From a virus (Duplodnaviria; Caudoviricetes), in the IMG/VR virus record IMGVR_UViG_3300011423_000022, positions 1-32,932 of that record: a stretch of 32,932 bases of DNA; one strand, given 5' to 3'. Position 1 is the first letter of the stretch. Each line of letters begins with the position of its first letter. The position numbers and the translations under genes were made by a program. The notes under the pieces are model-generated. The model saw nothing but the letters and a program-made list of their open reading frames with translations. It made no database searches and had not been told where the DNA came from. Shown one piece after another: positions 479 through 26,847 of this stretch.

Positions 479-507
479 TTTACAGACGGGGATAGGCGCG
501 GTAGGAT
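479..507 (+). promoter_or_regulatory. sigma70-like promoter P1 upstream of the ribozyme-punctuated operon
   Basis: TTTACA (479-484), 17 bp spacer, TAGGAT (502-507), with an A-rich upstream tract; same -35 hexamer and spacing as the promoter at 5029-5057. Confidence 0.7.
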
Positions 508-739
508 GAATTTGTTAGTCGCGGGGCCGGGGCGGGCCGGGTTAGTAGGCGGGCCGCTTACGGTTTAGGTAACTAACCGAGTCGGGTGACGGGGCCGCCT
601 GTTGAAGCAATAGCTGAAGCGCCCAGAAAACTCCCGGTTCGATGCGCCGAAAGTTTGGTGCCCAAGTTAACGGGAACGCAGAGATGCGACGCGCCTGTGA
701 CTTCTGGAGCCAGCTTGAAACCCTTAGGGGAGGAGGCGG

Positions 740-811
740 ATGGTCTGGTCAACCATTACTACCCGCGAGAACCCGCGGGCGACGCGAAGATTTGAGAAGA
801 TGGATGAATGA
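740..811 (+). CDS. Putative 23-aa peptide MVWSTITTRENPRATRRFEKMDE
   Basis: GGAGGAGG directly upstream of ATG 740; its TGA (809-811) overlaps the start of hammerhead 1, as the stops of later genes overlap their ribozymes. Confidence 0.45.
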   Translation: MVWSTITTRENPRATRRFEKMDE

Positions 812-866
812 ACCTAGAAACCGGCCGATGGCCGGTCGCGGGAATTTACCCGCCTGATGAGGGTTC
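810..866 (+). ncRNA. Type II hammerhead ribozyme HH1; predicted cleavage after C837
   Basis: GAACCT-A-GAAA, stem III CCGGCC/GGCCGG, TC, stem I GCGGG/CCCGC with loop AATTTA, CTGATGA, GGGTTC closing stem II. Confidence 0.9.
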
Positions 867-871
867 AAATC

Positions 872-1252
872 ATGAAGACCACGCACGCGCGCTTCAACAA
901 CGCCGGATCGATGCTCGTCGTTTCTCTGAAGAAGGGAAAGAAGGCGATTCAGATCTCGGTCAAGCGTCGGATCGCCGGTGAGAAGCTGGCCACGGGATGC
1001 CGTGAAAGCTTCTCGCTCGATCAGGCATCGGAAGCGCAGAAGTCCTTCGAAACGCTCCGCTCCGCGGCGCTCGCGAAGGGTTGGATCGAAGCCCCGCGGA
1101 CGCTGAAGTCGGCGTTTTCGGAGATCCCGGCGCCGCCTGTCGTCGCTGTCGTCGAACCGACACCGGCGCCCGAGCCGGTTCCGGAGCCGGTCGTCGTCGT
1201 CGAAGAGATCAAGCCGGTCGAGAAGCCGGTCGAGAAGAAGTCGAAGAAGTAG
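872..1252 (+). CDS. Hypothetical protein with a Pro/Glu/Val/Lys low-complexity tail; N-terminal part weakly WGR-like
   Basis: ATG 872 follows GAGGG in HH1; EAQKSFETLRSAALAKGW resembles the C-terminal helix of WGR domains (weak). Confidence 0.8.
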   Translation: MKTTHARFNNAGSMLVVSLKKGKKAIQISVKRRIAGEKLATGCRESFSLDQASEAQKSFETLRSAALAKGWIEAPRTLKSAFSEIPAPPVVAVVEPTPAPEPVPEPVVVVEEIKPVEKPVEKKSKK

Positions 1253-1253
1253 T

Positions 1254-1317
1254 GAACCACGAAACCGTCCTCCTTCGGGAGGACGGTCGCCCGAATTGAC
1301 GGGCCTGATGAGGGTTC
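1254..1317 (+). ncRNA. Type II hammerhead ribozyme HH2; predicted cleavage after C1288
   Basis: GAACCAC-GAAA, 9-bp stem III with cUUCGg loop, TC, stem I GCCCG/CGGGC with loop AATTGA, CTGATGA, GGGTTC. Confidence 0.92.
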
Positions 1318-1322
1318 ATCAC

Positions 1323-1523
1323 ATGAAACTGATCAACACGACCACCCGCAACGCGTTCTACACGATCCACCGCTGGAATGCGAACGTCATCGTTCGCTTC
1401 GGCAAGATCGGAACGAAGGGCCAGATTCGTGTGTTTGAATTCGTCGATCCGCGGTCTGCTCAGTGCTTCTTGGAAGAGAAGATCGAAAAGAAGCTGGATC
1501 GGAACTACGTCGTCGCGGCGTGA
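1323..1523 (+). CDS. WGR-domain-like protein
   Basis: FYTI...VIVRFGKIGTKGQ...A...LEEKIEKKLDRNY matches the WGR pattern (FY...WGRIG..GQ...K..KGY). Confidence 0.8.
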   Translation: MKLINTTTRNAFYTIHRWNANVIVRFGKIGTKGQIRVFEFVDPRSAQCFLEEKIEKKLDRNYVVAA

Positions 1524-1526
1524 TCG

Positions 1527-1585
1527 GAACCTAGAAACCGCCCATCGTGGGCGGTCGCCCGAATCGACGGGCCTGATGAGGGTTC
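1527..1585 (+). ncRNA. Type II hammerhead ribozyme HH3; predicted cleavage after C1556
   Basis: GAACCT-A-GAAA, stem III CCGCCCA/TGGGCGG, TC, GCCCG-AATCGA-CGGGC, CTGATGA, GGGTTC. Confidence 0.9.
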
Positions 1586-1590
1586 ATCAC

Positions 1591-1767
1591 ATGACTTTGA
1601 ACGAGATCATCCAGAAGCTTCTGGATGCCAAGCGGCTTCTCGAAGCCGATGGCCGGGATTGCGACACCGTGTGTGTCTTCTCCCAGACCGGAAGCGAGAT
1701 CGTAAAAATCGATCTCAAGGACGACGGATCCGGGATGGATAACCTGGATCTGTATCTCGGAACCTAG
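1591..1767 (+). CDS. Hypothetical acidic protein (58 aa)
   Basis: ATG 5 nt after HH3; TAG stop lies inside HH4. Confidence 0.75.
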   Translation: MTLNEIIQKLLDAKRLLEADGRDCDTVCVFSQTGSEIVKIDLKDDGSGMDNLDLYLGT

Positions 1768-1815
1768 AAACCGCCTCCGGGCGGTCGCCCGAATCGACGG
1801 GCCTGATGAGGGTTC
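1760..1815 (+). ncRNA. Type II hammerhead ribozyme HH4; predicted cleavage after C1786
   Basis: GAACCT-A-GAAA, stem III CCGCC/GGCGG, TC, GCCCG-AATCGA-CGGGC, CTGATGA, GGGTTC. Confidence 0.9.
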
Positions 1816-1818
1816 ATC

Positions 1819-2019
1819 ATGTTTGAAATCGGACAACGAGTTCATCTTCCATCAATCGATGAGGATTTCCCGGAAGCATTCGGGATCGTCGTTGAAGTCG
1901 GAGAAGTGGGCACACCCTGGGCGTGGGCTCGCGTGAAAATCGAAGACGCGTATCTCACCGGGGACGAAGAGCCGGATGGCACCGTGGAAGTGGATTTCAA
2001 GAACATTCGATCGATCTGA
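1819..2019 (+). CDS. Small acidic protein, possible SH3/KOW-like beta-barrel
   Basis: MFEIGQRV...GIVVEV...ARVKI pattern; bounded by HH4 and HH5. Confidence 0.75.
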   Translation: MFEIGQRVHLPSIDEDFPEAFGIVVEVGEVGTPWAWARVKIEDAYLTGDEEPDGTVEVDFKNIRSI

Positions 2020-2077
2020 ACCTAGAAACCGCCGGCGATCCGGCGGTCGCCCGAATCGACGGGCCTGATGAGGGTTC
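2018..2077 (+). ncRNA. Type II hammerhead ribozyme HH5; predicted cleavage after C2048
   Basis: GAACCT-A-GAAA, stem III CCGCCGG/CCGGCGG, TC, GCCCG-AATCGA-CGGGC, CTGATGA, GGGTTC. Confidence 0.9.
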
Positions 2078-2082
2078 ATCAC

Positions 2083-2817
2083 ATGACAAAAGAGAGGATT
2101 CTGGACAAGCTTCAGAAGATCAAGGCGCATCAAGAAAGCGCTGAGGAGATCGGCAACGAGGCCGAGGCTCAGGCGTTTGCCGAGATGCTCCAAAAGCTTC
2201 TCTTCACCCACCGGCTCGAGATGTCCGATTTGGACTTCGAGAAGATGGAGAAAGAGGAGCCGATTGAGAAGCACGCGATCAGGTATCCGGAGGATCTGAA
2301 ACACAAGAAATCCCGGGTGATCTGGCGCGAGCGCCTCACGTCGATGGCCGCTCGGGCGCACTTCTGTCGGATCCTGGTGCATCGCGGAAGTTCGCAGTGC
2401 ACCTTGGTCGGTCGGAAGAGCGATATCGAGATCGCCGAATACATGGTCGTCACGCTCATGTCGGCGGCGCGTCGCTTGTCCAAATCGGCGGATGCAAAGT
2501 ATCGTCGAGAAACGGGTCTTGGGGCGGCTTCTGGCTTCCGGGATTCGTGGCTCGCGGCCTTCATCGGTCGTCTCGAACAGAGGTTCGACGAGCTGCGTCG
2601 TGAGCACGAAACGACGAGTTCGGTGGCTCTGGTGCGAGTCAACAAATCGGAGGCAGCGGTTCTTGGCTTCATGAAGCAATTCGGCAAAGCCAACTCGATC
2701 GGGCAACTCAATGCCAGCAATTCAGAAGGCTGGCATCGTGGAACGGCCGCCGCAAACGCGATCAATCTGAAAGCGAATGCGATGAAGGATGGCGGCACGA
2801 AGAAACAAATCGGATGA
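2083..2817 (+). CDS. DUF2786-domain protein
   Basis: N-terminal ILDKLQKIKA...NEAEAQAFAEMLQKLLFTHRL matches the DUF2786 pattern; later FRDSWLAAF and GWHRGTAAANAINL segments fit this family. Confidence 0.8.
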   Translation: MTKERILDKLQKIKAHQESAEEIGNEAEAQAFAEMLQKLLFTHRLEMSDLDFEKMEKEEPIEKHAIRYPEDLKHKKSRVIWRERLTSMAARAHFCRILVHRGSSQCTLVGRKSDIEIAEYMVVTLMSAARRLSKSADAKYRRETGLGAASGFRDSWLAAFIGRLEQRFDELRREHETTSSVALVRVNKSEAAVLGFMKQFGKANSIGQLNASNSEGWHRGTAAANAINLKANAMKDGGTKKQIG

Positions 2818-2876
2818 ACTCAGAAACGCGGGTTGTCAACCCGCGTCGCCCGAATCGACGGGCCTGATGAGGGTTC
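2816..2876 (+). ncRNA. Type II hammerhead ribozyme HH6; predicted cleavage after C2847
   Basis: GAACTC-A-GAAA, stem III CGCGGGTT/AACCCGCG, TC, GCCCG-AATCGA-CGGGC, CTGATGA, GGGTTC. Confidence 0.9.
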
Positions 2877-2883
2877 AAACATC

Positions 2884-3075
2884 ATGGGAATTCACGACGT
2901 GCGACCATGTCCTTGTGGCTCTGGACAGAGCTCGTGGTGGGAATTGGATGCGCGAGGCATTCCTCTCGATCGAGTGTGCAAGAAGTGCAAGAAAGAGAAG
3001 CTCGCGCGCTACCGCAAGGATGTGCTGGTGAATCCGAATTATCAATCGGACGAGCCGATCTACGAAGACGACTGA
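2884..3075 (+). CDS. Small Cys-containing protein, probably zinc-binding
   Basis: CPCGSG and CKKC motifs; bounded by HH6 and HH7. Confidence 0.75.
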   Translation: MGIHDVRPCPCGSGQSSWWELDARGIPLDRVCKKCKKEKLARYRKDVLVNPNYQSDEPIYEDD

Positions 3076-3132
3076 ACCCAGAAACCTGGCATCGTGCCAG
3101 GTCGCCGGAATCAACCGGCCTGACGAGGGTTC
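3074..3132 (+). ncRNA. Type II hammerhead ribozyme HH7; predicted cleavage after C3103
   Basis: GAACCC-A-GAAA, stem III CCTGGCA/TGCCAGG, TC, stem I GCCGG/CCGGC (compensatory change) with loop AATCAA, CTGACGA, GGGTTC. Confidence 0.9.
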
Positions 3133-3133
3133 T

Positions 3134-3334
3134 ATGGACAAAGAAATCCGGTGGGTGCGCGTGCTTCATCAGGGACGGGATCGGATCCTGTGCTGGGGTT
3201 GCTTCGTGGATCAGAAGGCAACTCTCCTGAACCGGGTGTTCGGTGCATCGCAGACCTGCGAGGTCTGTGGCAAGTCGGACAAGAAGGGCGCGCCGATCTT
3301 CGATACTCGCGAAGAAAGGGATGGTGAGCGGTGA
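3134..3334 (+). CDS. Small zinc-finger-like protein
   Basis: CWGC and CEVC pairs; ATG 1 nt after HH7. Confidence 0.7.
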   Translation: MDKEIRWVRVLHQGRDRILCWGCFVDQKATLLNRVFGASQTCEVCGKSDKKGAPIFDTREERDGER

Positions 3335-3540
3335 GTCCGCTCATCATCACCGGTTCAGACAAGATCCAGTTCGCTCGGGTCTTGGCTCTGAAAGCTCGCT
3401 TGGGTCTCGAAATCAAGGGACTCAGGTTCCGTGGAAGGAGCGCGTATTCCATCCTGAAATCGGAACTCGGGATGCATGGTTCGCGAGAGAAAGTTTACGC
3501 GGATCTGCAGAAAGCTGTCGACGAGGTGCTTGAGCAATGA
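3331..3540 (+). CDS. Hypothetical phage protein
   Basis: GTGA overlap with the upstream stop and ATGA overlap downstream; protein-like sequence. Confidence 0.75.
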   Translation: MSPLIITGSDKIQFARVLALKARLGLEIKGLRFRGRSAYSILKSELGMHGSREKVYADLQKAVDEVLEQ

Positions 3541-3686
3541 GGGACCTGTTCAGGATCATCGAAGCTTACTTCCAGGACAGAAGTCTGGCGAACTACTCAG
3601 ACGATGCTCTCTGGCAGGCAACGAAAACTCTCCGCTCAGTCGCTGACTGGGCGGAGCGGCAGCGGATCGATCGGAGGAGGAATTGA
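3537..3686 (+). CDS. Hypothetical protein (49 aa, MRDLFRIIEAYF...)
   Basis: Translated by hand; ATGA coupling to the previous gene, GAGGTG upstream. Confidence 0.6.
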   Translation: MRDLFRIIEAYFQDRSLANYSDDALWQATKTLRSVADWAERQRIDRRRN

Positions 3687-3811
3687 TCACTCTCATCGAA
3701 TACAATAGACGATTCGACCTCATCGTCGAAGCGTTCAGAACTGGCTACTTCTCTGCGGACGAAGCGTCGGCTGCCATGTCGGAGCTGACGTCGATGGTCA
3801 TCGTGCACTGA
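3683..3811 (+). CDS. Hypothetical protein (42 aa, TTG start)
   Basis: GGAGGAGG upstream, TTGA coupling; TGA overlaps the start of HH8. Confidence 0.6.
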   Translation: MITLIEYNRRFDLIVEAFRTGYFSADEASAAMSELTSMVIVH

Positions 3812-3873
3812 ACCTAGAAACCTGGCTCTTTCGGGAGCCAGGTCGCCCGAATCGACGGGCCTGAAGAGGGTTC
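3810..3873 (+). ncRNA. Type II hammerhead ribozyme HH8; predicted cleavage after C3844
   Basis: GAACCT-A-GAAA, stem III CCTGGCTC/GAGCCAGG with TTCG-containing loop, TC, GCCCG-AATCGA-CGGGC, CTGAAGA, GGGTTC. Confidence 0.9.
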
Positions 3874-3875
3874 AA

Positions 3876-4043
3876 ATGACAATCAAGATCTACATGCGAG
3901 ATGGCACAGAAGATATGCTCATGAATGTGGGCTCATCCTTCGAGCTCCACCAGGGAATCTTCTCAACCACCGATGCTCTCGGCAATCAAATATCGTATGA
4001 CGATGTCGAGAGAATCGTGGTGGTGGAGGACGACGATGAATGA
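3876..4043 (+). CDS. Hypothetical acidic protein (55 aa, MTIKIYMRDG...)
   Basis: Translated by hand; ATG 2 nt after HH8. Confidence 0.65.
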   Translation: MTIKIYMRDGTEDMLMNVGSSFELHQGIFSTTDALGNQISYDDVERIVVVEDDDE

Positions 4044-4299
4044 CGGACGCGTCGTCCAATATCGCACGCTGAGGCGCCATCCGGCGCGGCGTGGTCATCC
4101 TGCACTCGAAGCAGGCACGATCCTGTGGCTGATTGAGTATCCCAATGGGAGACTCTTCACCTATGGATATGTGCTCAAAGTGAGTGCTGCCAAGGTGAAA
4201 GCCAGTCTCACTGGAACTCAACAGGAGATCGATTTCAATTCGGTTTCAGATCCCGAAGCAGTGATGCAATCGTGGATCGATCCTGGAGATGTCCGATGA
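4036..4299 (+). CDS. Hypothetical protein
   Basis: GGAGG upstream of ATG 4036; overlaps both neighbours. Confidence 0.65.
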   Translation: MNDGRVVQYRTLRRHPARRGHPALEAGTILWLIEYPNGRLFTYGYVLKVSAAKVKASLTGTQQEIDFNSVSDPEAVMQSWIDPGDVR

Positions 4300-4517
4300 A
4301 GTGGGCAGTAACGTCCGTCTCGATCTCGGTCAAGACGCGCCGCCGGATGGGCAAGGCGGCCGTCTCTGTGGTGGATGTCGAGAATCTAAGGAGATTCGGC
4401 GTCAAGGAACCACTCTCCACCGCACTTGATGTGGAGAAGTATTTCGAGAAGACTCGTTCAGGGAGAGAGTCAGTCGCGAAGGTCGTGGATGTTCGCTTGC
4501 TGGACGAGAGGAACTAG
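4296..4517 (+). CDS. Hypothetical protein
   Basis: ATGA coupling, GGAG upstream; TAG stop inside HH9. Confidence 0.65.
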   Translation: MKWAVTSVSISVKTRRRMGKAAVSVVDVENLRRFGVKEPLSTALDVEKYFEKTRSGRESVAKVVDVRLLDERN

Positions 4518-4569
4518 AAACCGGGGCTCTGCCCCGGTCGCCAGAATCAACTGGCCTGACGAGGTTCCT
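4509..4569 (+). ncRNA. Type II hammerhead ribozyme HH9; predicted cleavage after C4539
   Basis: AGGAACT-A-GAAA, stem III CCGGGGC/GCCCCGG, TC, stem I GCCAG/CTGGC with loop AATCAA, CTGACGA, GGTTCCT (stem II changed on both strands). Confidence 0.9.
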
Positions 4570-5004
4570 GTGAAACAATCTCGTATCCCGACCATTGAGG
4601 AACTCGATCGCCATGCACACGACTTGGCTGACGCGTTCGATATCCTCTTGCTTCTAGACGAAAAATATCCTCTTGGATACGGTCGTGCTGCGATCGTGAT
4701 TCTTCGGGAGGATGAAATCCCTGAAGATCTACGGTTGCTCGTCGCACCGGACACCATCGTAAAGATCGTCGCAGCACCACCGATCACCGATGAAACTTCG
4801 TATGCTGCTGTGCTGCACGAAATGGGGCACCACTGCAGTCCGACCGGGTTTGACAAGACTCTGGGCACGATGCTCAGAGAAGAGTCCGCGTGGGAGTGGG
4901 CCGAATACTATGCTCTCCACTGGAGCGTGGCCATGGCTCATCTGAAAGAGATCGCACTCGGAACTTACCGTCGAGCAATTGATAAGCGGAACCGGTCTCG
5001 ATAA
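4570..5004 (+). CDS. HExxH zincin-like metallopeptidase domain protein
   Basis: VLHEMGH followed by EESAW, as in ImmA/IrrE-type zincins; GTG directly after HH9. Confidence 0.7.
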   Translation: MKQSRIPTIEELDRHAHDLADAFDILLLLDEKYPLGYGRAAIVILREDEIPEDLRLLVAPDTIVKIVAAPPITDETSYAAVLHEMGHHCSPTGFDKTLGTMLREESAWEWAEYYALHWSVAMAHLKEIALGTYRRAIDKRNRSR

Positions 5005-5028: not shown

Positions 5029-5057
5029 TTTACATCGGAGCTTGTCTGTAGTATAAT
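5029..5057 (+). promoter_or_regulatory. sigma70-like promoter P2
   Basis: TTTACA (5029-5034), 17 bp spacer, TATAAT (5052-5057), intergenic. Confidence 0.85.
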
Positions 5058-5074: not shown

Positions 5075-5197
5075 ATGAGAGTCATCGAATATGCGATGCT
5101 GGTGATGATTGGGGCATTTGCTGCTCATCTCATCACCGACCAGATGCTTCTGGCATTTGGCGAGTTCGTGGCACAGGTGGTGAACCTGGTGCCATAG
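5075..5197 (+). CDS. 40-aa hydrophobic peptide resembling a mature Flp/type IVc pilin
   Basis: Translated by hand: MRVIEYAMLVMIGAFAAHLITDQMLLAFGEFVAQVVNLVP; AGGTGG upstream; first ORF after P2. Confidence 0.6.
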   Translation: MRVIEYAMLVMIGAFAAHLITDQMLLAFGEFVAQVVNLVP

Positions 5198-5205
5198 GAG
5201 GTTCA

Positions 5206-5574
5206 ATGGCCAGTAAGACGTGTAACAGATGTGGTGCTCTGAAAGACGATCACATCTACTACCCTGATCGTGGCGGCCTGATTTGCCCCACGTTCGATGC
5301 GTGGGGAGAACAGGGATTCTTCACAGAAAAGTCCAAGGGAATTCGAAGCATCCCGATCATCGGTGGGTTGTGGCCGCTGTGCAAGACTTGCAAGCACATC
5401 GCTCAAGAGCACGACGAAGGTCGCTGTGGATTTCATGGCACTGGTCAGTGCAAAGAATGTGGCCAGTGGGGTGCCAAGATCCAGTGCTCCTGCACGAAAT
5501 ACGATGGTCCCACGTTTGAAGAGTTCAAACGAGACTATCTGACTCCCGAAGAAATCGCTCACTACAAGTGGTGA
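5206..5574 (+). CDS. Cys/His-rich zinc-binding protein
   Basis: CNRC, CKTCKH...H, CKEC and CSC motifs; GGAGG upstream. Confidence 0.75.
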   Translation: MASKTCNRCGALKDDHIYYPDRGGLICPTFDAWGEQGFFTEKSKGIRSIPIIGGLWPLCKTCKHIAQEHDEGRCGFHGTGQCKECGQWGAKIQCSCTKYDGPTFEEFKRDYLTPEEIAHYKW

Positions 5575-5583
5575 GGAGGATGG

Positions 5584-6402
5584 ATGGCTGCTGAGTGGAA
5601 CTTCGTGGCACCGATGCTCTGCCACAAGTTGAAGGACAAGGTGAGCATCAGCAAGGGCGAGTGGGTGGCCGAAGAGAAGTTCGATGGCCACCGACTCGTC
5701 CTCTACAAAGGCGGGTCAGAAGTAGTCGCGTGGAGTCGAGATCTGATTCGACGCGATCTGCCCAAGCAGGTTATTCAGGATGCTCTCCTGCTGCCTGATG
5801 GGACTTACGATGGCGAACTCCTGGCTCCTGGGAAGAGATCCTATGGAGTCACTGACAAGAGCCATTCGAGCTTGCTCGTGTATAACGTGTTCGATATCAC
5901 GAAGATGCACGGGATCGAGCTGCACAAATTGACGTGGCTCGAACGGAGAAACATCCTGATCGAGACTGCGATGCGATCAGGGATTGGGAAAGGGATCGCC
6001 ACCTGTGAGGTGTGGGAAATTGAATCTCGCGAGCACCTGACTGCCATCTGCCAGCGGATCTGGGATAAAGATGGCGAAGGGATCATCGCGAAGCGCAAGG
6101 CCAGTCCATATCAGATCGGATCTCGATCCAGGGATTGGCTCAAGTTGAAGGACAAGAAGACTGCGCTGCTCGAGTGCGTGGGATATCTCCATGGTCTCGA
6201 GGGACCATATGCTCGTGTGCTGTTGCGAGACGAAGAGGGCAACACCACCCGAGCCAAGACTCGTAATTCGAAGGAGAGGGAGAGGCTCGCTGCGACTCCT
6301 GGTTTCTTCGTCGGAAAGAAGCTCTGGATCGAGTTCCAGGAGAGGACTCCTGATGGGAACTATCGTGGTCCTGTAATCTGGGATCGTTGGGAGGACGAGT
6401 GA
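5584..6402 (+). CDS. lig: Minimal ATP-dependent DNA ligase
   Basis: Motif I EEKFDGHR, YDGEL, YNVFDI, EGIIAK and WLKLK, followed by a short OB-fold-like C-terminus. Confidence 0.92.
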   Translation: MAAEWNFVAPMLCHKLKDKVSISKGEWVAEEKFDGHRLVLYKGGSEVVAWSRDLIRRDLPKQVIQDALLLPDGTYDGELLAPGKRSYGVTDKSHSSLLVYNVFDITKMHGIELHKLTWLERRNILIETAMRSGIGKGIATCEVWEIESREHLTAICQRIWDKDGEGIIAKRKASPYQIGSRSRDWLKLKDKKTALLECVGYLHGLEGPYARVLLRDEEGNTTRAKTRNSKERERLAATPGFFVGKKLWIEFQERTPDGNYRGPVIWDRWEDE

Positions 6403-6587: not shown

Positions 6588-6847
6588 TCTTCATCTCTGT
6601 GTGCCAGTATTGTGCCTGGACCTGGGAGGAGGTGGACAAGGATGTTGCTGTGGCTCGAGTGCTCACCCACATCGAAGAAGAGCACGGGAACCAGCATTCT
6701 CCGTCGATTCTCATGCACCTGCGAGAGGATCATCCTGACCACTGTTTGTGCGATTATTGCGTCTGCTCTGGATGCGGACGACATAAGCATCCTGGAAAGT
6801 GCCTTCCTCACGGATGGCCATCTTGGCTTCCAATGGAGAGACGATGA
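6584..6847 (+). CDS. Cys/His-rich hypothetical protein
   Basis: CQYC...H...H and CLCDYCVCSGC...H motifs; coupled to both neighbours. Confidence 0.65.
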   Translation: MIFISVCQYCAWTWEEVDKDVAVARVLTHIEEEHGNQHSPSILMHLREDHPDHCLCDYCVCSGCGRHKHPGKCLPHGWPSWLPMERR

Positions 6848-7311: not shown

Positions 7312-9540
7312 TTATTGAGGACCTGTCATATGCCCATCTTCTGGATCCACATATGACGAGAAGTCGTCCTCCAACAAGTCTTTCAGATCAAGCAATTCCA
7401 GACGAACCCGGCGCTCTGCCGGCATGAGAGTGTTCGACAACACCCACATGGGCCTGCCAATCCACCCACCACCTTGCACTCCACGCCAGTGATTCAGAGT
7501 GACATAACTTCCGATGTCGAACTCCGCATTCATCAAGCATAGAGATCCTTCCAACTCGACATAGGTCGGCACTTTGGTCCACCTGCGAGCGACTTCTTCC
7601 AGCATAGATTCCATCAGACTCGCATCGTAGTGATACCAGAATGAGACCTGTCCCTCCCGTCTCTCTCCACCCCAATTCGCAATCGACGTCTCGTTGACAG
7701 TAGTCGAACCAGATCGTCCATTCTCAGGATCCGGAGTGTTGAAATCCTGGACCCAATTTTCTGGGATGACCCAATCCTTGCGATACTGATAGGAGATCAC
7801 ATTGATCAGCTCTTGGAGCTTCGGCTGCGGCTTGAAGGTCCGAGTATGGATCTCGTATGTATCGAGAAGAGGATTCGTATCTTCTGGTCCAATGAATCGA
7901 TTGATCGCATGAATAGACGATTGCCAGAACCGATTTGTCCCCATCCGGAAATCCCCATTCGCCTGCCAGCGAACAAGCATTTCTGGCACATCCACCAACT
8001 CTCCCCACTGACCAGGAACACCGAAGGTCGTGAGAGGCACACCGAGCTGATCGATGCGTTGTGCTTTCAGTGCTTCGAAGGAGACGTAATCGATGATCGT
8101 ATCTTCGTCTGCACCGAATGTTGGCTGATCGTTCCAGGTTGTTCTTGGTCCACCACCAGACACGAACACCACGTTCTCGAGATAGTGGCGGAACTGATCG
8201 TGAAGATCAGTGAGGACCTCTCCAGATGAATCACCAACGGTCTCGATGCCGCGGACTCGAGCTGCGATGTATGCCTCCCTGTTCAGGCACTTGTTGGCTT
8301 TTGGTCCTTGGCCATAGATGAGGGTCCAGCGACGAGCATCCCCATCTCCGCCGATCAGGTCTCGATAGCTGGTGCCTCCAAGAATTGCTGTCCATTCGGG
8401 TGTGTCGGGCACGAGCCATTCGGTGCCAGATCCCTGGTTCTCCTCGATGGCATAGTTCTCGGAACCGTCGACACGAGTGCCACTTGGCAGGATATATGCC
8501 CATGCAAGAACTTCCTTGATGGCCGAACCTGAGAGCAGGAATTCATGCCACACACCAGACGCAGTGGGAAGAACCACATTCTGGCGCATCGGCATGGCCG
8601 AGACATATCCGTATGCGATGATACCAGATGCCACAGGACCGAGATCAGGACTCTCGCCATAGATCAGCTGAGCACCCTTGGACCATGCATCGGCCACGAT
8701 GAGCTCGGCATTCGGGAGACTATATTCACTGATGCGTCGACGAGGCAGCTGGACTTGGCCTTGCTGCGTCCAGCCCATTGCGATGGACAGACGATCTCGG
8801 CAGGTGAACTGGACCTGCATCCCTTCTTCACGATTGTCGAACTGAGGATCCTCATCCACGAATCCGGTGGCGATCTTCTTGGCCACAGCACCCTGAAGAC
8901 GCGCATCAGGTGTGACGAAGAAGAGCTCGACTTCTTTCTTGTACCAGTATTGCGAGTCTCCATTTCCGAGCTGACACCTGATCGTGTAGTCTTCGTCGGA
9001 GAGTTCGAAATTGAATGTCCCTGCTTCGTTCTGCCAATCAGTGGCCGAGAGAGCTCGACGGACTTCTGAGATCTGCAGCAGCCGATCAGGTTTCCACCCA
9101 CCATAATAGCTGAGAGGATCATCAAGCGGAATCTCGGCGAACCAGATCTTCTCGCCAGACACGATTGGCAACCATGAACCGAATGCTACAGGATCATCTT
9201 GCGTGCCACACAGATCCTCTCCCTCAGAAGGAGACAGGATACCCTCAATCGCGATCGCAGTCTCCACACCAAACTGCGTGATGCGGAGACTTGGATCGAG
9301 AATACCTGTTTCAACAGCAAGAGTGGTGACACGAAGACCTGGATCGTGAACAGCTAACTCAACACCAAATTCAGTGATACGCAGATGGTCTGGTGAGAAG
9401 ACTGCTTCAACACCAATCTGAGTGACTTGGGATGGAGAAGGTTCTGCCTCCAGAGATGGCCAGAGGATGATCGTGCTGGCCACCACATCCTGAACACCAA
9501 GGACACCTGGAGGGAATTGTGCAGCCCAGTTGACAACCAT
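7312..9540 (-). CDS. Minor tail / tail-tip (hub-like) protein
   Basis: 742-aa acidic ORF at the end of the tail module; function inferred from position. Confidence 0.65.
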   Translation of the reverse strand: MVVNWAAQFPPGVLGVQDVVASTIILWPSLEAEPSPSQVTQIGVEAVFSPDHLRITEFGVELAVHDPGLRVTTLAVETGILDPSLRITQFGVETAIAIEGILSPSEGEDLCGTQDDPVAFGSWLPIVSGEKIWFAEIPLDDPLSYYGGWKPDRLLQISEVRRALSATDWQNEAGTFNFELSDEDYTIRCQLGNGDSQYWYKKEVELFFVTPDARLQGAVAKKIATGFVDEDPQFDNREEGMQVQFTCRDRLSIAMGWTQQGQVQLPRRRISEYSLPNAELIVADAWSKGAQLIYGESPDLGPVASGIIAYGYVSAMPMRQNVVLPTASGVWHEFLLSGSAIKEVLAWAYILPSGTRVDGSENYAIEENQGSGTEWLVPDTPEWTAILGGTSYRDLIGGDGDARRWTLIYGQGPKANKCLNREAYIAARVRGIETVGDSSGEVLTDLHDQFRHYLENVVFVSGGGPRTTWNDQPTFGADEDTIIDYVSFEALKAQRIDQLGVPLTTFGVPGQWGELVDVPEMLVRWQANGDFRMGTNRFWQSSIHAINRFIGPEDTNPLLDTYEIHTRTFKPQPKLQELINVISYQYRKDWVIPENWVQDFNTPDPENGRSGSTTVNETSIANWGGERREGQVSFWYHYDASLMESMLEEVARRWTKVPTYVELEGSLCLMNAEFDIGSYVTLNHWRGVQGGGWIGRPMWVLSNTLMPAERRVRLELLDLKDLLEDDFSSYVDPEDGHMTGPQ

Positions 9541-22729: not shown

Positions 22730-22819
22730 CTACCTCTTAGACCTTGGCGGATGCTTCTTCATCCCGCCTGTTTCTTGCTTGTTCATCGGAGGGAGTTGCT
22801 GTTTGGCCATCATTAGCAT
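22730..22819 (-). CDS. Possible small basic peptide (MLMMAKQQLPPMNKQETGGMKKHPPRSKR)
   Basis: GAGGAG upstream; ends 2 nt before the connector start; overlaps the 3' end of the glycosyltransferase. Confidence 0.35.
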   Translation of the reverse strand: MLMMAKQQLPPMNKQETGGMKKHPPRSKR

Positions 22820-23978
22820 ACTCTCCTCTTTTGTGAGTTTGGAGGACTTGATGGAACTGCTCGGCGATGTTGGGCCACTGGAATTCGGGTTTCTTTGCTC
22901 GGGCATATCCCTTTCCTCCAATCAGAGCACACCATTCGGGATCTCGATATCCCTTGTCGATGGTGGCCATCACATGTTCTACAGAAGTGGCTCCTCCGAT
23001 GACATTGATGCCCTTCGCAGTGACGATCTTGTGGGTGACTGGCATGTAATGCACAGCACCCTTGGGCCACTCGCCAAGAGCAGCCCATTCCACGACAGCA
23101 TTCGGAATGCCACAGGCCATGGATTCGTGAGTCGTGAGACCCCATCCCTCGCCAGACGAAGTGCTGATGTGAAGATTCAAGCACTGATACATGAGTCGAA
23201 GAGCCTCTTCCGGAACGAAATCCGATGGCTTCAATTTGACCTTGCTCATGATCATGTGACTAGCAATCCCATGATATCGAGCAAGCTGCATCACGTCGTA
23301 GCCGATGTCGTATCTCGAGCAATGCAAGAAGAGATACGCATTTTCTGGCTTGCCAACATTATGCCACCAACCAGCGAATCCCTCGATCGTCTGATCAAGC
23401 CTCTTGCGAGGCTGATTGCGATTGATGTTGCCGACGATGAAGGCTTTCTCACCGAGTCGATGCAGACCAAGAGTCTCGCGTGCTGTGGCCTGATCTCCTG
23501 GATAGTAGATCTCAGAATCGACTCCATGAGGAATGATGTGTGATATTCCTTTGTAGCCACCATCCTTCGCTTCCTTCTGGCCAAACTCGGTATACCAGAT
23601 GGCTGCTGTGAGACCATTGAGGATCTCTCCTGACGCCATGTTCCGCCCATCTACAGGCATGTATGCCACGATGGGCACGTCAGGTGGTGCGTCGGTGCCC
23701 AGGAACTTGGTGACCAGCCAGGGATCCTGGAGGATGCACACGACATCCGGGTTCACACGACGCACCACCTCACTGAATCGGCCGACTCCGAAGAAGTCGC
23801 CACCGAGTTGCGCAGGATAGATGGGATATTGATGCGGATGGGGATCACCAAGATAATTGATCCCGAGCACATGGATGTCCCATCGATCAGTCAGATGCGC
23901 AAGAACATTGTGAGTGACTCGAGAGAACCCAGTCGGAGTGACTGCATCACCGACCCAGAGGAGACGAGGCTTAGGCAT
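22737..23978 (-). CDS. GT-B fold glycosyltransferase (GT4-like)
   Basis: TGFSRV, IPHGVD, NRNQPRKR and EGWGLTTHESMACGIP motifs; AAGGAGG before ATG 23978. Confidence 0.9.
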   Translation of the reverse strand: MPKPRLLWVGDAVTPTGFSRVTHNVLAHLTDRWDIHVLGINYLGDPHPHQYPIYPAQLGGDFFGVGRFSEVVRRVNPDVVCILQDPWLVTKFLGTDAPPDVPIVAYMPVDGRNMASGEILNGLTAAIWYTEFGQKEAKDGGYKGISHIIPHGVDSEIYYPGDQATARETLGLHRLGEKAFIVGNINRNQPRKRLDQTIEGFAGWWHNVGKPENAYLFLHCSRYDIGYDVMQLARYHGIASHMIMSKVKLKPSDFVPEEALRLMYQCLNLHISTSSGEGWGLTTHESMACGIPNAVVEWAALGEWPKGAVHYMPVTHKIVTAKGINVIGGATSVEHVMATIDKGYRDPEWCALIGGKGYARAKKPEFQWPNIAEQFHQVLQTHKRGEYANDGQTATPSDEQARNRRDEEASAKV

Positions 23979-24801
23979 CGAGAACCTCCTTCTGAGCAGC
24001 ACCATAGGTCCAATCGATGCCACTGAATCCGGACACCTCGTGGAAGCGTCCGAGATGGATGGAGCTCTCTTTGCCAATGTGTTGAGCAAACGATGGCACG
24101 CTGCTCAAGAAGTGCTCTGCTCGCCAGACCATGGTGGCCCAGTCTTTCAACAGGAGATCAAATCCCTGTCCGGTGTCCCATTCTTTCAGGCGAGTGTAGA
24201 TGTAATCGAAGGCAGATGATGCATCAGCTCGAGTGAATGCGAGAGCCTGATTGCCATAGAATCCCTTCACAGGGAAATTCCATGACGTCTGCCCTGCCTT
24301 CCATGCATCGCACACCATCTTGTAGGGAGTGGCGAACGAATACATGTGACGATCACGACGTGCATGTTGGCTGAGCCAGCGATCTACCGAGCCAAGGAAA
24401 TCGCGACACACATCGATATCGTCTTCGAGAAAGAGGATCCACGGAGTTCTCGATTCGATCCCAATCCGGAAACACTCGAGCGCATTTCCGTTTCGCGAGC
24501 GACGCAGATGCCCATCTCGCTTGTCCTTCAGAGCATACTGCGGACTGAGTCGACTGCTCAGGTCTTCCGTGAGAGGATGAAACATCACCTTCTGTGGATG
24601 CACAGCAGGGATCTCGGCCATTGCAACTCGCTTGTATTCATCGAGTCCGATAGATCCAGAGTCAATGATGTCGAGCTGAAATGGGATGGACGATTCCCAC
24701 AACCCAGAGCGCGCCATGTTGCGCAACATCTGAGGCAGATAGTTCTCCTGTGGAGATCGGTTGATGGTCCCGACGACGATGCAGTATTTTGGGGTCTTCA
24801 T
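23971..24801 (-). CDS. GT-A fold glycosyltransferase
   Basis: TINRSPQENYL, WILFLEDD, FYGNQAL, FDLLL and QHIG motifs. Confidence 0.75.
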   Translation of the reverse strand: MKTPKYCIVVGTINRSPQENYLPQMLRNMARSGLWESSIPFQLDIIDSGSIGLDEYKRVAMAEIPAVHPQKVMFHPLTEDLSSRLSPQYALKDKRDGHLRRSRNGNALECFRIGIESRTPWILFLEDDIDVCRDFLGSVDRWLSQHARRDRHMYSFATPYKMVCDAWKAGQTSWNFPVKGFYGNQALAFTRADASSAFDYIYTRLKEWDTGQGFDLLLKDWATMVWRAEHFLSSVPSFAQHIGKESSIHLGRFHEVSGFSGIDWTYGAAQKEVLDA

Positions 24802-25493
24802 GTTCCTTCCTGCTGATATGACCAATCGACACCAGCAAAGTGTCGAGTCCTCATTATTGACCTCTTGCGGAAGGCATGCGTGAGGGACTCATCTCCTGCA
24901 TGCTGGACGAAGTCTGGATGAGATGCCACAAAGGGTTCGTGGGCCCACTGTCGCATCAGCATATCGAATCCACTCGTCCGCCAACCAAGCGAGTATGATC
25001 GTCGCCATTTTGGCAACGCTTTCTTCACATATTTCCCGAAGTCCTTGAGATCAGTGTATCGCATGGCCACACACATACATCCATACGATGTCCTGGGAGA
25101 GAGCCACTCCTCTTTCCCAGGTCTAGATCCTTTGAATGTGATGAATGTATAGACCTTCTGGCGACCAGCATGCTTGTCGAGCCATCGCTTGACGGACCCG
25201 AGGAAGTCAGTGCAGATCACAAGATCGTCTTCCAAGTGGAGCACCCAATCGCATTCTGGCATGCCTTGCAACAGAGCAAGACCATTCTCATTACGAGTGA
25301 GCTTTCTTTCTGGGATATGAACGACGATCCCAGGATGCGATTCGATCTCCATCCATGAAGTTTCTGGCCCACTCACGAAGAGATGCAGTTGGCCATCGCT
25401 GAGACCTTGCTGCACTAATTGATCGACTGTTGCTCGAAGATAGTTCTTTCGAGGTCGTCGATTCGCCGTGGTCATTCCGATGAGCAGATTCAT
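24798..25493 (-). CDS. GT-A fold glycosyltransferase, paralogue of the adjacent gene
   Basis: TANRRPRKNYL, WVLHLEDD, FDMLM and VQHAG motifs align by eye with 23971-24801. Confidence 0.75.
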   Translation of the reverse strand: MNLLIGMTTANRRPRKNYLRATVDQLVQQGLSDGQLHLFVSGPETSWMEIESHPGIVVHIPERKLTRNENGLALLQGMPECDWVLHLEDDLVICTDFLGSVKRWLDKHAGRQKVYTFITFKGSRPGKEEWLSPRTSYGCMCVAMRYTDLKDFGKYVKKALPKWRRSYSLGWRTSGFDMLMRQWAHEPFVASHPDFVQHAGDESLTHAFRKRSIMRTRHFAGVDWSYQQEGT

Positions 25494-26296
25494 GCTGGGA
25501 ATCTTTGTTGGGTTCGGGCACAGAAAACTGGTCCGTGTTTGGAGATAATCGCTGATTGTTTAGCGCAGCTCTCCACGAATAGATCGCCACCGAGTCGACG
25601 ATAATGCATCGCTTTCCATTCGCCATGCTGATTCCACTTCTGCCGAGCTTCAGCACTCGGCATATCAAGCATGATCAGTTCTTTCGTGCGGACATTATGT
25701 CTCTTTAGCCAAGACTCCGTCTCCGCACGATACATCTCCAAACGGCACGTAACGATCGCTTGGACCTGTCGAGTCGGGAGGAATAGAGGCTCCGCGTGAC
25801 GCAAGAACGCTTCGTATTTGCTCCTGTCCGCATTTTCCTCTTTCGTTGGATCGCGGCAGATGACGCCATCCATATCCACCATGATAGAGGAAAGATGCAC
25901 ACTTCGCCAGATATTCCACGGAAACACACGTGGAGTCTGAAGAGTCTCGAAGGCGAAGTCGAGCATATCGTTCTTGCCGGGAGCGACGTAAACAGCAGAT
26001 CGGATGATCTTGACATCAGGTCTGGCTCGGACACATCGTTCCACAGCCATGCCCATTTCAGTGCCACGGAGGAGCGAATCGTCCAGAAGCAAGATCGTCT
26101 TCAGTTCAGATGTCACATTATCGTTGCAGTATTGATCAAGACTCAACACTGTTCTCTGCATGTGAAGACCAAGCATCAACGAAGCCATCAACCCAGATCG
26201 AGGAATGCCAACAATCATATCGAACTGAGGCAGTTCGTGCATTCGACGGACCATGATGTAGTTCAGGTCGGTGATGGTTCGGACACTGATCTTCAT
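25490..26296 (-). CDS. Phosphoribosyltransferase-like domain fused to a HAD-like domain
   Basis: IVGIPRSG and ILLLDDSLLRGT (PRPP-binding loop); VDMDGVIC (HAD motif I DxDG). Confidence 0.8.
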   Translation of the reverse strand: MKISVRTITDLNYIMVRRMHELPQFDMIVGIPRSGLMASLMLGLHMQRTVLSLDQYCNDNVTSELKTILLLDDSLLRGTEMGMAVERCVRARPDVKIIRSAVYVAPGKNDMLDFAFETLQTPRVFPWNIWRSVHLSSIMVDMDGVICRDPTKEENADRSKYEAFLRHAEPLFLPTRQVQAIVTCRLEMYRAETESWLKRHNVRTKELIMLDMPSAEARQKWNQHGEWKAMHYRRLGGDLFVESCAKQSAIISKHGPVFCARTQQRFPA

Positions 26297-26847
26297 GCGA
26301 TGCCACACGCTCCAAGATTAATCCATCCATGATCGGGGCCACGAACACGATCCCGATTGAGGAGTTGAACACTTTTGAATCCTGCCTCGATTAGAGACTG
26401 CTGCAAGAATCGTGGAGTGAACAGACAATGATGCCAGTTTGGATCATTCGCTTTGCTCGTCTTCGCATATGCGAAGATCCGTCCAGCAATCCACAGATAC
26501 GGGTTGCGCTTCTCGTTGAATCGAGTCCAGTTGTCGTGATGAATCGGCGACACATTGTTTTCTTCAAGATCGACGAGAGCCTTCGCGATCTTCAGCCCAT
26601 CGACCGTGAACACCTCAAGAGTCCCATCATCTTTCAAGACTCGATGCCATTCCAGAAGAGTGTCCGCCACCTGATACCACGGAACATGCTCAAGAACATG
26701 TGACGCATAGATCAGGTTGAAGGACCTGTCCGGGAATGGCATCTTGCGACAATCGCCAACATGGTCGACATGAGGACCAGGCAGGATATCCATCGTCTCG
26801 AATCCTTTGAGACGTGAATTCCTGGGACCGATCTCAAGTCGACGCAT
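26293..26847 (-). CDS. Class I SAM-dependent methyltransferase
   Basis: LEIGP, MPFPDRSFNLIYASHVLEH and EWHRVLKDDG motifs. Confidence 0.88.
   Translation of the reverse strand: MRRLEIGPRNSRLKGFETMDILPGPHVDHVGDCRKMPFPDRSFNLIYASHVLEHVPWYQVADTLLEWHRVLKDDGTLEVFTVDGLKIAKALVDLEENNVSPIHHDNWTRFNEKRNPYLWIAGRIFAYAKTSKANDPNWHHCLFTPRFLQQSLIEAGFKSVQLLNRDRVRGPDHGWINLGACGIA

Follow-up and report, generated by a model that had tools for sequence, protein, structure and literature searches.

Natural type II hammerhead ribozymes were described by Perreault (2011), and in the parts of that paper covered here clusters of them flank prophage genes in Agrobacterium tumefaciens, Azorhizobium caulinodans and Clostridium scindens (PMC3088659). 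Three tandem arrangements cut at all of their sites in vitro, and one of them also in Escherichia coli. The same source describes the hammerhead of haloviruses HF1 and HF2 (HHphage), which stands before an early helicase gene and for which the transcript has a 5' end within 3 nucleotides (nt) of the cut. In cells of Desulfovibrio, cutting is reported for three hammerheads of type II that neighbour phage-like genes (PMC8782182). Among type I ribozymes, those of chrysoviruses have a 6-pair helix II with a bulged A and cut fast, at 2–3 per minute, and their cutting is tied to translation, as given in the part of PMC13725137 covered. The role of prokaryotic hammerheads is still called an open question in the covered part of PMC6155905. 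Here we analyse nine such elements in the virus record IMGVR_UViG_3300011423_000022, the whole 32,932 bases of which (about half of a complete genome) form the window. The elements lie on the same strand at junctions of tailed-phage genes, in an operon that we call early because of its small genes, its sigma-70-like promoter matches and the adjoining ligase gene. Judged by their sequence, they apparently represent an uncatalogued hammerhead subtype.

The elements are 56–64 nt long and were found where a sequence-only reading of the window had placed them, all on the + strand and none on the − strand: 810–866, 1254–1317, 1527–1585, 1760–1815, 2018–2077, 2816–2876, 3074–3132, 3810–3873 and 4509–4569 (hammerheads, or copies, 1 to 9). 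The pattern GAAAC-gap-GTC-gap-CTGANGA gives nine forward, no reverse and no control matches in the record. Taken by itself, CTGANGA occurs 31 times in the window, no more than the 40.9 expected, so that the signal lies in the whole layout. A strict three-stem descriptor recovered eight of the nine copies; copy 2 was missed because its bulge is one pair further out, which breaks the stem II rule, and a relaxed descriptor recovered all nine. Applied to 300 dinucleotide shuffles, the strict descriptor found no match in 298 and one match in each of the other two. When each copy is folded alone, the three-way junction is the lowest-energy fold in all nine cases (z −1.56 to −4.94). The layout is that of type II, with stems I and III closed as hairpins and stem II open, and the core segments CUGANGA, GAAA and GUC are intact throughout. 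Position N7 is the sole variable core position in the window (U in six copies, C in two, A in one) and the sequence of stem III is distinct in every copy, both as first read. Residue C17, after which each element is predicted to cut, falls at 837, 1288, 1556, 1786, 2048, 2847, 3103, 3844 and 4539, and the eight spacings are likewise those of the first reading (451, 268, 230, 262, 799, 256, 741 and 695 nt).

Assignment to type II, which the sequence-only reading had taken from the core, is borne out by two lines of evidence. The Rfam model RF02276 is the top match for five of the nine copies, at 20.9–29.6 bits, although no copy matches at the gathering threshold, so that the Rfam check bears out the class and stops short of a formal hit. 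The other line is covariation, remarked on for stem I by the sequence-only reading, which extends to stems I, II and III across 62 distinct copies from the window and related loci. In this alignment 94.8% of cells pair and 15 of 19 pairs change on both sides (five of seven in stem II, six of seven in stem III, four of five in stem I); none of 500 shuffles reaches the observed level and slid controls stay at or below 44.9%. Residues C3, U4, G5, A6, G8, A9, A15.1 and U16.1 are invariant in the 62 copies, and N7 takes all four bases. We regard the hammerhead ancestry and fold of the nine elements as near certain.

Related copies were collected by searching viral contigs. The tight patterns had no matches there, and a looser pattern returned 56 stretches on 43 contigs, 14 of which carry true elements, as judged by the descriptor or by a model made from the nine copies plus two from contig L009. 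Of the 59 loci L074–L132, 46 were scanned with this model, and the counts for 54 distinct descriptor copies given below exclude L034, L045 and L095, which were dropped as chance descriptor matches. Scans of bacterial and archaeal genomes yielded 19, 3 and 0 stretches, none of which passed the descriptor; the model matched only L029 (16.9 bits), L130 (21.2 bits) and L131 (31.7 bits) among them. Five related records of uncultured phages contain 13, 9, 7, 6 and 5 copies. They share the first open reading frame (ORF) of the window operon, ORF1 (five contigs), and most also have the ligase. Shared gene families stand between the ribozymes in differing order among these phages, on crude ORF calls.

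Stem II of the elements contains, on its 5' strand, an A that is left without a partner. This A is present in all nine window copies, directly before GAAA in eight and one pair further out in copy 2, so that the textbook 10.1–11.1 pair adjoining G12 exists in copy 2 only. A bulge containing A is found on this strand in 52 of the 54 family copies: at the core in 24, one pair out in 25, two pairs out in two and three pairs out in one (weak). The search did not select for the bulge, since its pattern started at GAAA. Stem II itself is 6–7 pairs long, and in 50 of the 54 copies its arms form at least five pairs with their own partner, versus 18.3 with shuffled partners. Scores against RF02276 reach at most 29.6 bits in the window and at most 33 in six related loci, with the gathering cut-off at 37. 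Loop I has the conserved form AAUNRA; conservation of its AAU is partly built in, because AAU was in the search pattern, and the copies recovered by the descriptor alone include loops other than the AAU type.

Two other arrangements of this junction were tried and set aside. The loop I pseudoknot, counted where at least four pairs are possible, was found with the 3' tail in 14 of 54 copies (16.9 after shuffling), with the 5' flank in 20 (15.6) and with the 3' arm in 13 (12.1). A junction made of a G-A mismatch and a free bulge is less likely, as in all 24 copies with the bulge at the core a pyrimidine (U or C) precedes the A and pairs with G10.1, a count taken on related copies with a script that scored for pairing. 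Instead of forming the usual pseudoknot, the conserved loop I probably makes contact with the bulged A. This loop-bulge contact is our inference; types I and III have a conserved reverse Hoogsteen interaction that links helix I to helix II (PMC6155905). No cutting assay of the A-before-GAAA form was found in the literature searched, and the subtype may be listed in the alignment supplement of Perreault (2011).

Variants of the element occur outside the window. The 2-kb contig L009, from a different phage, has two copies of the bulged-A subtype. In one of them the cut site is UUC, and both have G at N7, which produces a GAGGAGG ribosome site running through the core. Single-base core insertions (in GAAA, after A6 or after A9) are seen in L102 (copies near 4660–4739 and 3334–3411) and in L106 (7281–7356), and similar variants were described in 2011 (PMC3088659, in the part covered).

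The elements are tightly placed with respect to the signals of translation. All eight internal window copies have the upstream stop codon ending 0–11 nt before G12, or on it, which places the stop in or beside the stem II 5' arm. On the other side, the start codon of the next gene follows 5–11 nt behind GAGG in nine of nine copies, and its Shine-Dalgarno sequence overlaps G8-A9 and the stem II 3' arm. The same holds in the family: the start codon of an ORF of at least 30 codons lies 4–14 nt behind GAGG in 50 of 54 copies, and 36 of 54 have an upstream stop between −16 and +6 relative to G12. Random positions drawn from the same loci give 24% for the start and 14% for the stop. These excesses indicate tight placement at gene junctions and no more, because the null includes coding DNA. 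The best pairing with the anti-Shine-Dalgarno sequence starts at G8 in 44 of the 54 copies and at U4 in eight. In folding computations, with an energy model without tertiary contacts, removal of the 5' piece lowers the median cost of opening G8 and the next seven bases from 6.1 to 3.55 kcal/mol, so that the notion of a cut freeing the ribosome site of the next gene is partly supported by modelling.

The likeliest reading of the sequence is that the nine elements cut the transcript from promoter P1 into the fragments given by the spacings above, and cutting by most of the nine copies is highly probable. We further consider it probable that these bulged-A type II hammerheads divide a long, presumably early, transcript into messenger RNAs of one to four genes with ends predicted to be protected. 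After the cut behind GUC, a cyclic phosphate would terminate the upstream piece, at its stem III hairpin. The downstream piece would open with the stem I hairpin, bearing a 5'-OH, and continue through CUGANGAGG to the start codon 5–11 nt further on. Cyclic-phosphate and 5'-OH ends flush with a hairpin are poor substrates for the decay enzymes of the host. The pieces would then be held together by stem II alone, that is, by 6–7 pairs that contain part of the next Shine-Dalgarno sequence, and this stem would be melted by ribosomes that finish translation at the upstream stop codon, given its place in or next to the 5' arm. Each gene would thus be a self-contained unit with its own start and end, and genes could be added, lost or reordered behind a single promoter.

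Several observations weigh against this account. As to cutting itself, eight of the nine copies carry an A between the last stem II pair and G12, and the 2011 screen discarded matches with a mispair at 10.1–11.1 (PMC3088659, in the part covered). The available RNA data comprise 21 short contig pieces from four RNA runs, at a depth of 2–6. One piece spans the cut at 837 with more than 31 nt on each side, and another runs 20 nt past 2048; both may be DNA or uncut precursor. The pieces lean, weakly, against complete cutting, being assembled contigs in which RNA ends are invisible. As to folding, when 60 nt of flank are included, copies 3, 4 and 5 are predicted to favour structures other than stem II (pair probability 0.01, 0.05 and 0.14), and in copies 2–5 the core can pair with its own tail (six pairs), as it can in six of the 54 family copies. 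The 62-copy alignment behind the covariation was fitted to the model, and its copies are related to each other. As to translation, the gain in ribosome access is patchy, with a drop of at least 2 kcal/mol in 29 of 54 family copies, in four of nine window copies with short flanks and in two of nine with long flanks. Five of the eight fragments are predicted to close stem II again over their own ribosome site with their own 3' end. The Shine-Dalgarno overlap is also partly built in, because GAG belongs to any hammerhead core and was in the search pattern.

The stop codons at the stem II arm also bear on a different order of events, in which the element is first of all a switch for translational coupling: stem II would mask the ribosome site until a terminating ribosome melts the 5' arm, with cutting slow or confined to untranslated messages. 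The position of the upstream stop at eight of eight internal copies is what such a switch would have, as is its closeness to the arm in 36 of the 54 family copies; the junctions without ribozymes use overlapping codons, and the extra A may slow the core. A simple hairpin would suffice for this purpose, yet the catalytic core is invariant throughout, together with the UH cut site, and copy 1, like the first copies of several other arrays, stands behind a leader with no stop nearby. We regard this explanation as unlikely. Less probable still is that cutting serves as a shut-off timer, which exposes the early message to decay or breaks coupling to the upstream gene and so limits the protein to a short burst. 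Self-cleavage of an mRNA can trigger decay in some bacteria (glmS), and no cultured phage that might point to a host is close (at most 36.5% identity for the capsid and 26.2% for the ligase among the matches listed, 15 of 55 and of 40). However, both new ends would carry stable hairpins flush with the cut, and every downstream piece retains its ribosome site and start codon.

Another possibility, which we hold to be distinctly improbable as a full explanation, is that the repeats act at the level of DNA as recombination points for accessory genes, the ribozyme being carried along with a copied ribosome-site unit. Copies 3–6 have 33–46 identical bases in common, and gene order differs among the related arrays. 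Furthermore, one RNA-run contig (depth 6) leaves the window sequence at the start of copy 8 and runs on into a different start codon, also an overlapping one, which hints that genes are exchanged at the element. Against this stand the changes on both sides of the stems with pairing kept, which argue for selection on RNA shape, the stem III that is distinct in each copy, and copies 7 and 9, which share at most 12 identical bases with others. Exchange at the elements can be compatible with the favoured reading of a transcript cut at gene junctions.

Least probable is that the fragment ends rebuild a hybrid hammerhead that ligates them into circular mRNAs or joins halves with genes skipped: in the window the pairing energy of neighbouring arms comes close to that of own arms (−8.3 versus −8.7 kcal/mol) and five of eight fragments are predicted to close their own ends with a probability above one half, but in three related arrays neighbouring arms are worse than own arms and at best slightly better than other arms (−4.7 versus −4.8, −6.6 versus −6.8 and −4.4 versus −3.6 kcal/mol), spliced or circular products were sought by Perreault (2011) and none were found in the part covered (PMC3088659), and the contigs of the four RNA runs, too shallow to weigh, contain no joints. 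A composite of these ideas, in which the uncatalogued subtype would make each early gene a self-closing module, its Shine-Dalgarno sequence hidden by a hybrid hammerhead that ribosomes terminating on the 5' arm would open, and its ends ligated again to give ribosome-gated, partly circular single-gene mRNAs without any phage protein, seems to us very doubtful.

The operon in which the elements stand can be followed from its candidate promoter at 479–507 (+ strand, as are all features of the operon), a sigma-70-like TTTACA, 17 nt and TAGGAT with 9 of 12 consensus positions. This P1, from which the sequence-only reading had started the transcript, is a consensus match only and weak when taken alone, as the scan found three sites versus 2.8 expected. 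A −10-like hexamer, picked by eye, was found about 250–550 nt 5' of the first ribozyme in six related loci. P1 is followed by a leader of about 300 nt (513–809), probably non-coding (longest closed ORF 69 amino acids), which has no Rfam match and folds no better than its shuffles (z −1.22); the first cut would release it. Behind hammerhead 1 comes ORF1 (872–1252, 126 amino acids), which belongs to no Pfam or PHROG family and has homologs of 29–40% identity in five other array-bearing phage contigs; its Atlas matches were all below 0.9, and a likeness to positions 5413–5823 of L032, a relative described below, is unsupported (E 22). Hammerhead 2, with its G10.1-C11.1 pair followed by the bulged A, precedes a WGR-domain protein (1323–1523, 66 amino acids; PF05406, E 3.9e-10). 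ORF3 (1591–1767, 58 amino acids), behind hammerhead 3, has no family and its stop codon ends on G12 of hammerhead 4; the latter precedes ORF4 (1819–2019, 66 amino acids, no family). A protein of 244 amino acids with DUF2786 and DUF7168 (2083–2817; phrog_421) follows hammerhead 5, and the Cys-rich ORF6 (2884–3075, 63 amino acids, no family) follows hammerhead 6.

In the second half of the array the units are longer. Between hammerheads 7 and 8 lie four small ORFs (3134–3811: 3134–3334, 3331–3540, 3537–3686 and 3683–3811), the second of which matches phrog_19182. Three more (3876–4517: 3876–4043, 4036–4299 and 4296–4517) lie between hammerheads 8 and 9, and the last two of these have homologs in array-bearing phages. 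Within both blocks stop and start codons overlap and no ribozyme intervenes. Both stem II arms of hammerhead 9 are displaced by one base, and the element leads to ORF14 (4570–5004, 144 amino acids), which has a GTG start, a HEXXH motif in its translation and no family. Overall, ribozymes occupy eight of 13 gene junctions and the front of the operon, the remaining five junctions being overlapping stop and start codons. A second sigma-70-like promoter at 5029–5057 (TTTACA, 17 nt, TATAAT; 11 of 12) precedes a block with the gene for an ATP-dependent DNA ligase (5584–6402, + strand).

Leaders of this kind appear to be a common feature of the arrays. The window (513–809) and L106, L111, L117, L102, L081 and L098 have about 250–550 nt ahead of the first ribozyme found, behind a −10-like hexamer. 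Most of them start with GUU, continue with a hairpin that has a G/U-rich loop and a stem that varies between phages, and then show a GGUGACGG-like motif; none of the leaders of the window and the related loci has an Rfam match. Two adjacent hairpins in a 5' leader resemble, as we take it, antiterminator RNAs of the put type. At 720–733 of the window, RNA-run contigs from two studies contain a variant in which both hairpin arms are changed around the same UUAG loop, a hint of conserved structure in the leader.

Homologs of the operon genes were also sought outside the arrays. Among 42 viral loci with a DUF7168 homolog there were no model matches within about 6 kb and no descriptor matches, four such records searched whole contained no element, and a search with the ligase as its single query yielded no loci from viruses. 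One ribozyme-free relative among the DUF7168 loci, L032 (38% complete), has DUF7168 and ligase proteins with 48% and 39% identity to those of the window. Its matching region contains four + strand promoter matches, two of them behind a repeated terminator-like hairpin; these hairpin and sigma-70 promoter cassettes are at 5122–5149, 5844–5933, 6770–6833 and 8939–8967. The promoter spacers share a palindromic TTTTAAA or TTTAAA stretch, which may be an operator. The comparison, with L032 as one example, suggests that a separate start for each early gene can be provided in two ways, by ribozymes or by promoter cassettes.

The rest of the record is that of a tailed phage, with genes for portal, protease, major capsid, neck, tail and tape measure proteins on the − strand, and neither tRNA nor tmRNA was found. 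Over 7,077 bases the window is identical to a 60-kb metagenome contig (L010), and parts of it are contained in 24 sequencing runs, chiefly of DNA from freshwater sediment and soil. The element sequence has no counterpart in cultured phages (best match coverage 41%, E 2). About 25 copies of a GC-rich unit of 9–10 nt fill positions 1–308 and extend further upstream in the 60-kb contig, possibly marking an origin or a genome-end region. Glycosyltransferase, kinase-like and methyltransferase-like genes, interspersed with head and neck genes at 22737–26847 (− strand), possibly serve to modify the virion.

The phage group lends itself to comparison, since it includes relatives with 5–13 ribozyme junctions and one with promoter cassettes in the matching region. 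Bulged-A arrays are probably undercounted, because the subtype lies under the Rfam threshold and its A-before-GAAA form would fail the 2011 filter. Fast cutting by this form would broaden the consensus for hammerheads and would mean that loop and bulge make a new kind of contact. Moreover, a single element of 60 nt combining cutting, capping and a ribosome site would amount to a gene insulator of natural origin, within the limit that the layout itself was already known.

The early mRNA of phage T7, processed by RNase III and likened to the window transcript in the sequence-only reading, and engineered ribozyme insulators such as RiboJ offer an analogy, in that cuts at the junctions of a long message produce units whose ends are defined and bear hairpins. 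T7 processing uses a host protein, and RiboJ is synthetic, placed once per gene by design. The Rfam family RF02276 (Hammerhead_II, clan CL00010) has the same order of GAAA, stem III, UH, stem I, CUGANGA and open stem II. The window subtype differs from it in scoring below the 37-bit cut-off and in having a conserved AAUNRA loop and a 6–7 pair stem II with a bulged A; it also lacks the pseudoknot between loop I and the 3' tail, which the majority of type II hammerheads possess. The HF1/HF2 hammerhead, as far as the source covers it, similarly belongs to an early polycistronic transcript, with a start codon 13 nt behind it and a 5' end mapped at the cut, but it is a single copy of a different core variant in an archaeal virus. 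Chrysovirus hammerheads, in the covered account of them, differ in being of type I, in belonging to eukaryotic RNA viruses and in having the bulge in mid-stem rather than against the core. Closest are the clusters of Perreault (2011), in which, in the covered parts, several hammerheads on one strand border individual genes, or blocks of a few genes, in a phage operon, the identity of the genes varies and processing of a long transcript was proposed. The fragments tested there are of about 2 kb (the triple in A. tumefaciens), whereas the window has nine copies of one subtype over 3.8 kb and its relatives up to 13; the stop codon and Shine-Dalgarno overlap and the bulged A are absent from the parts of PMC3088659 covered. 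In the literature searched, mostly papers available without subscription, we found nothing on arrays of at least nine, on the bulged-A subtype or on the stop and Shine-Dalgarno overlap. The novelty that the sequence-only reading had seen in the array is overstated, as clusters flanking prophage genes and the idea of transcript processing were published and tested in 2011 and related phages carry 13 and nine copies. The array is a clean and large example of a known arrangement, and its new part is the putative subtype, the commonest window form of which is a core variant known here from its sequence alone.

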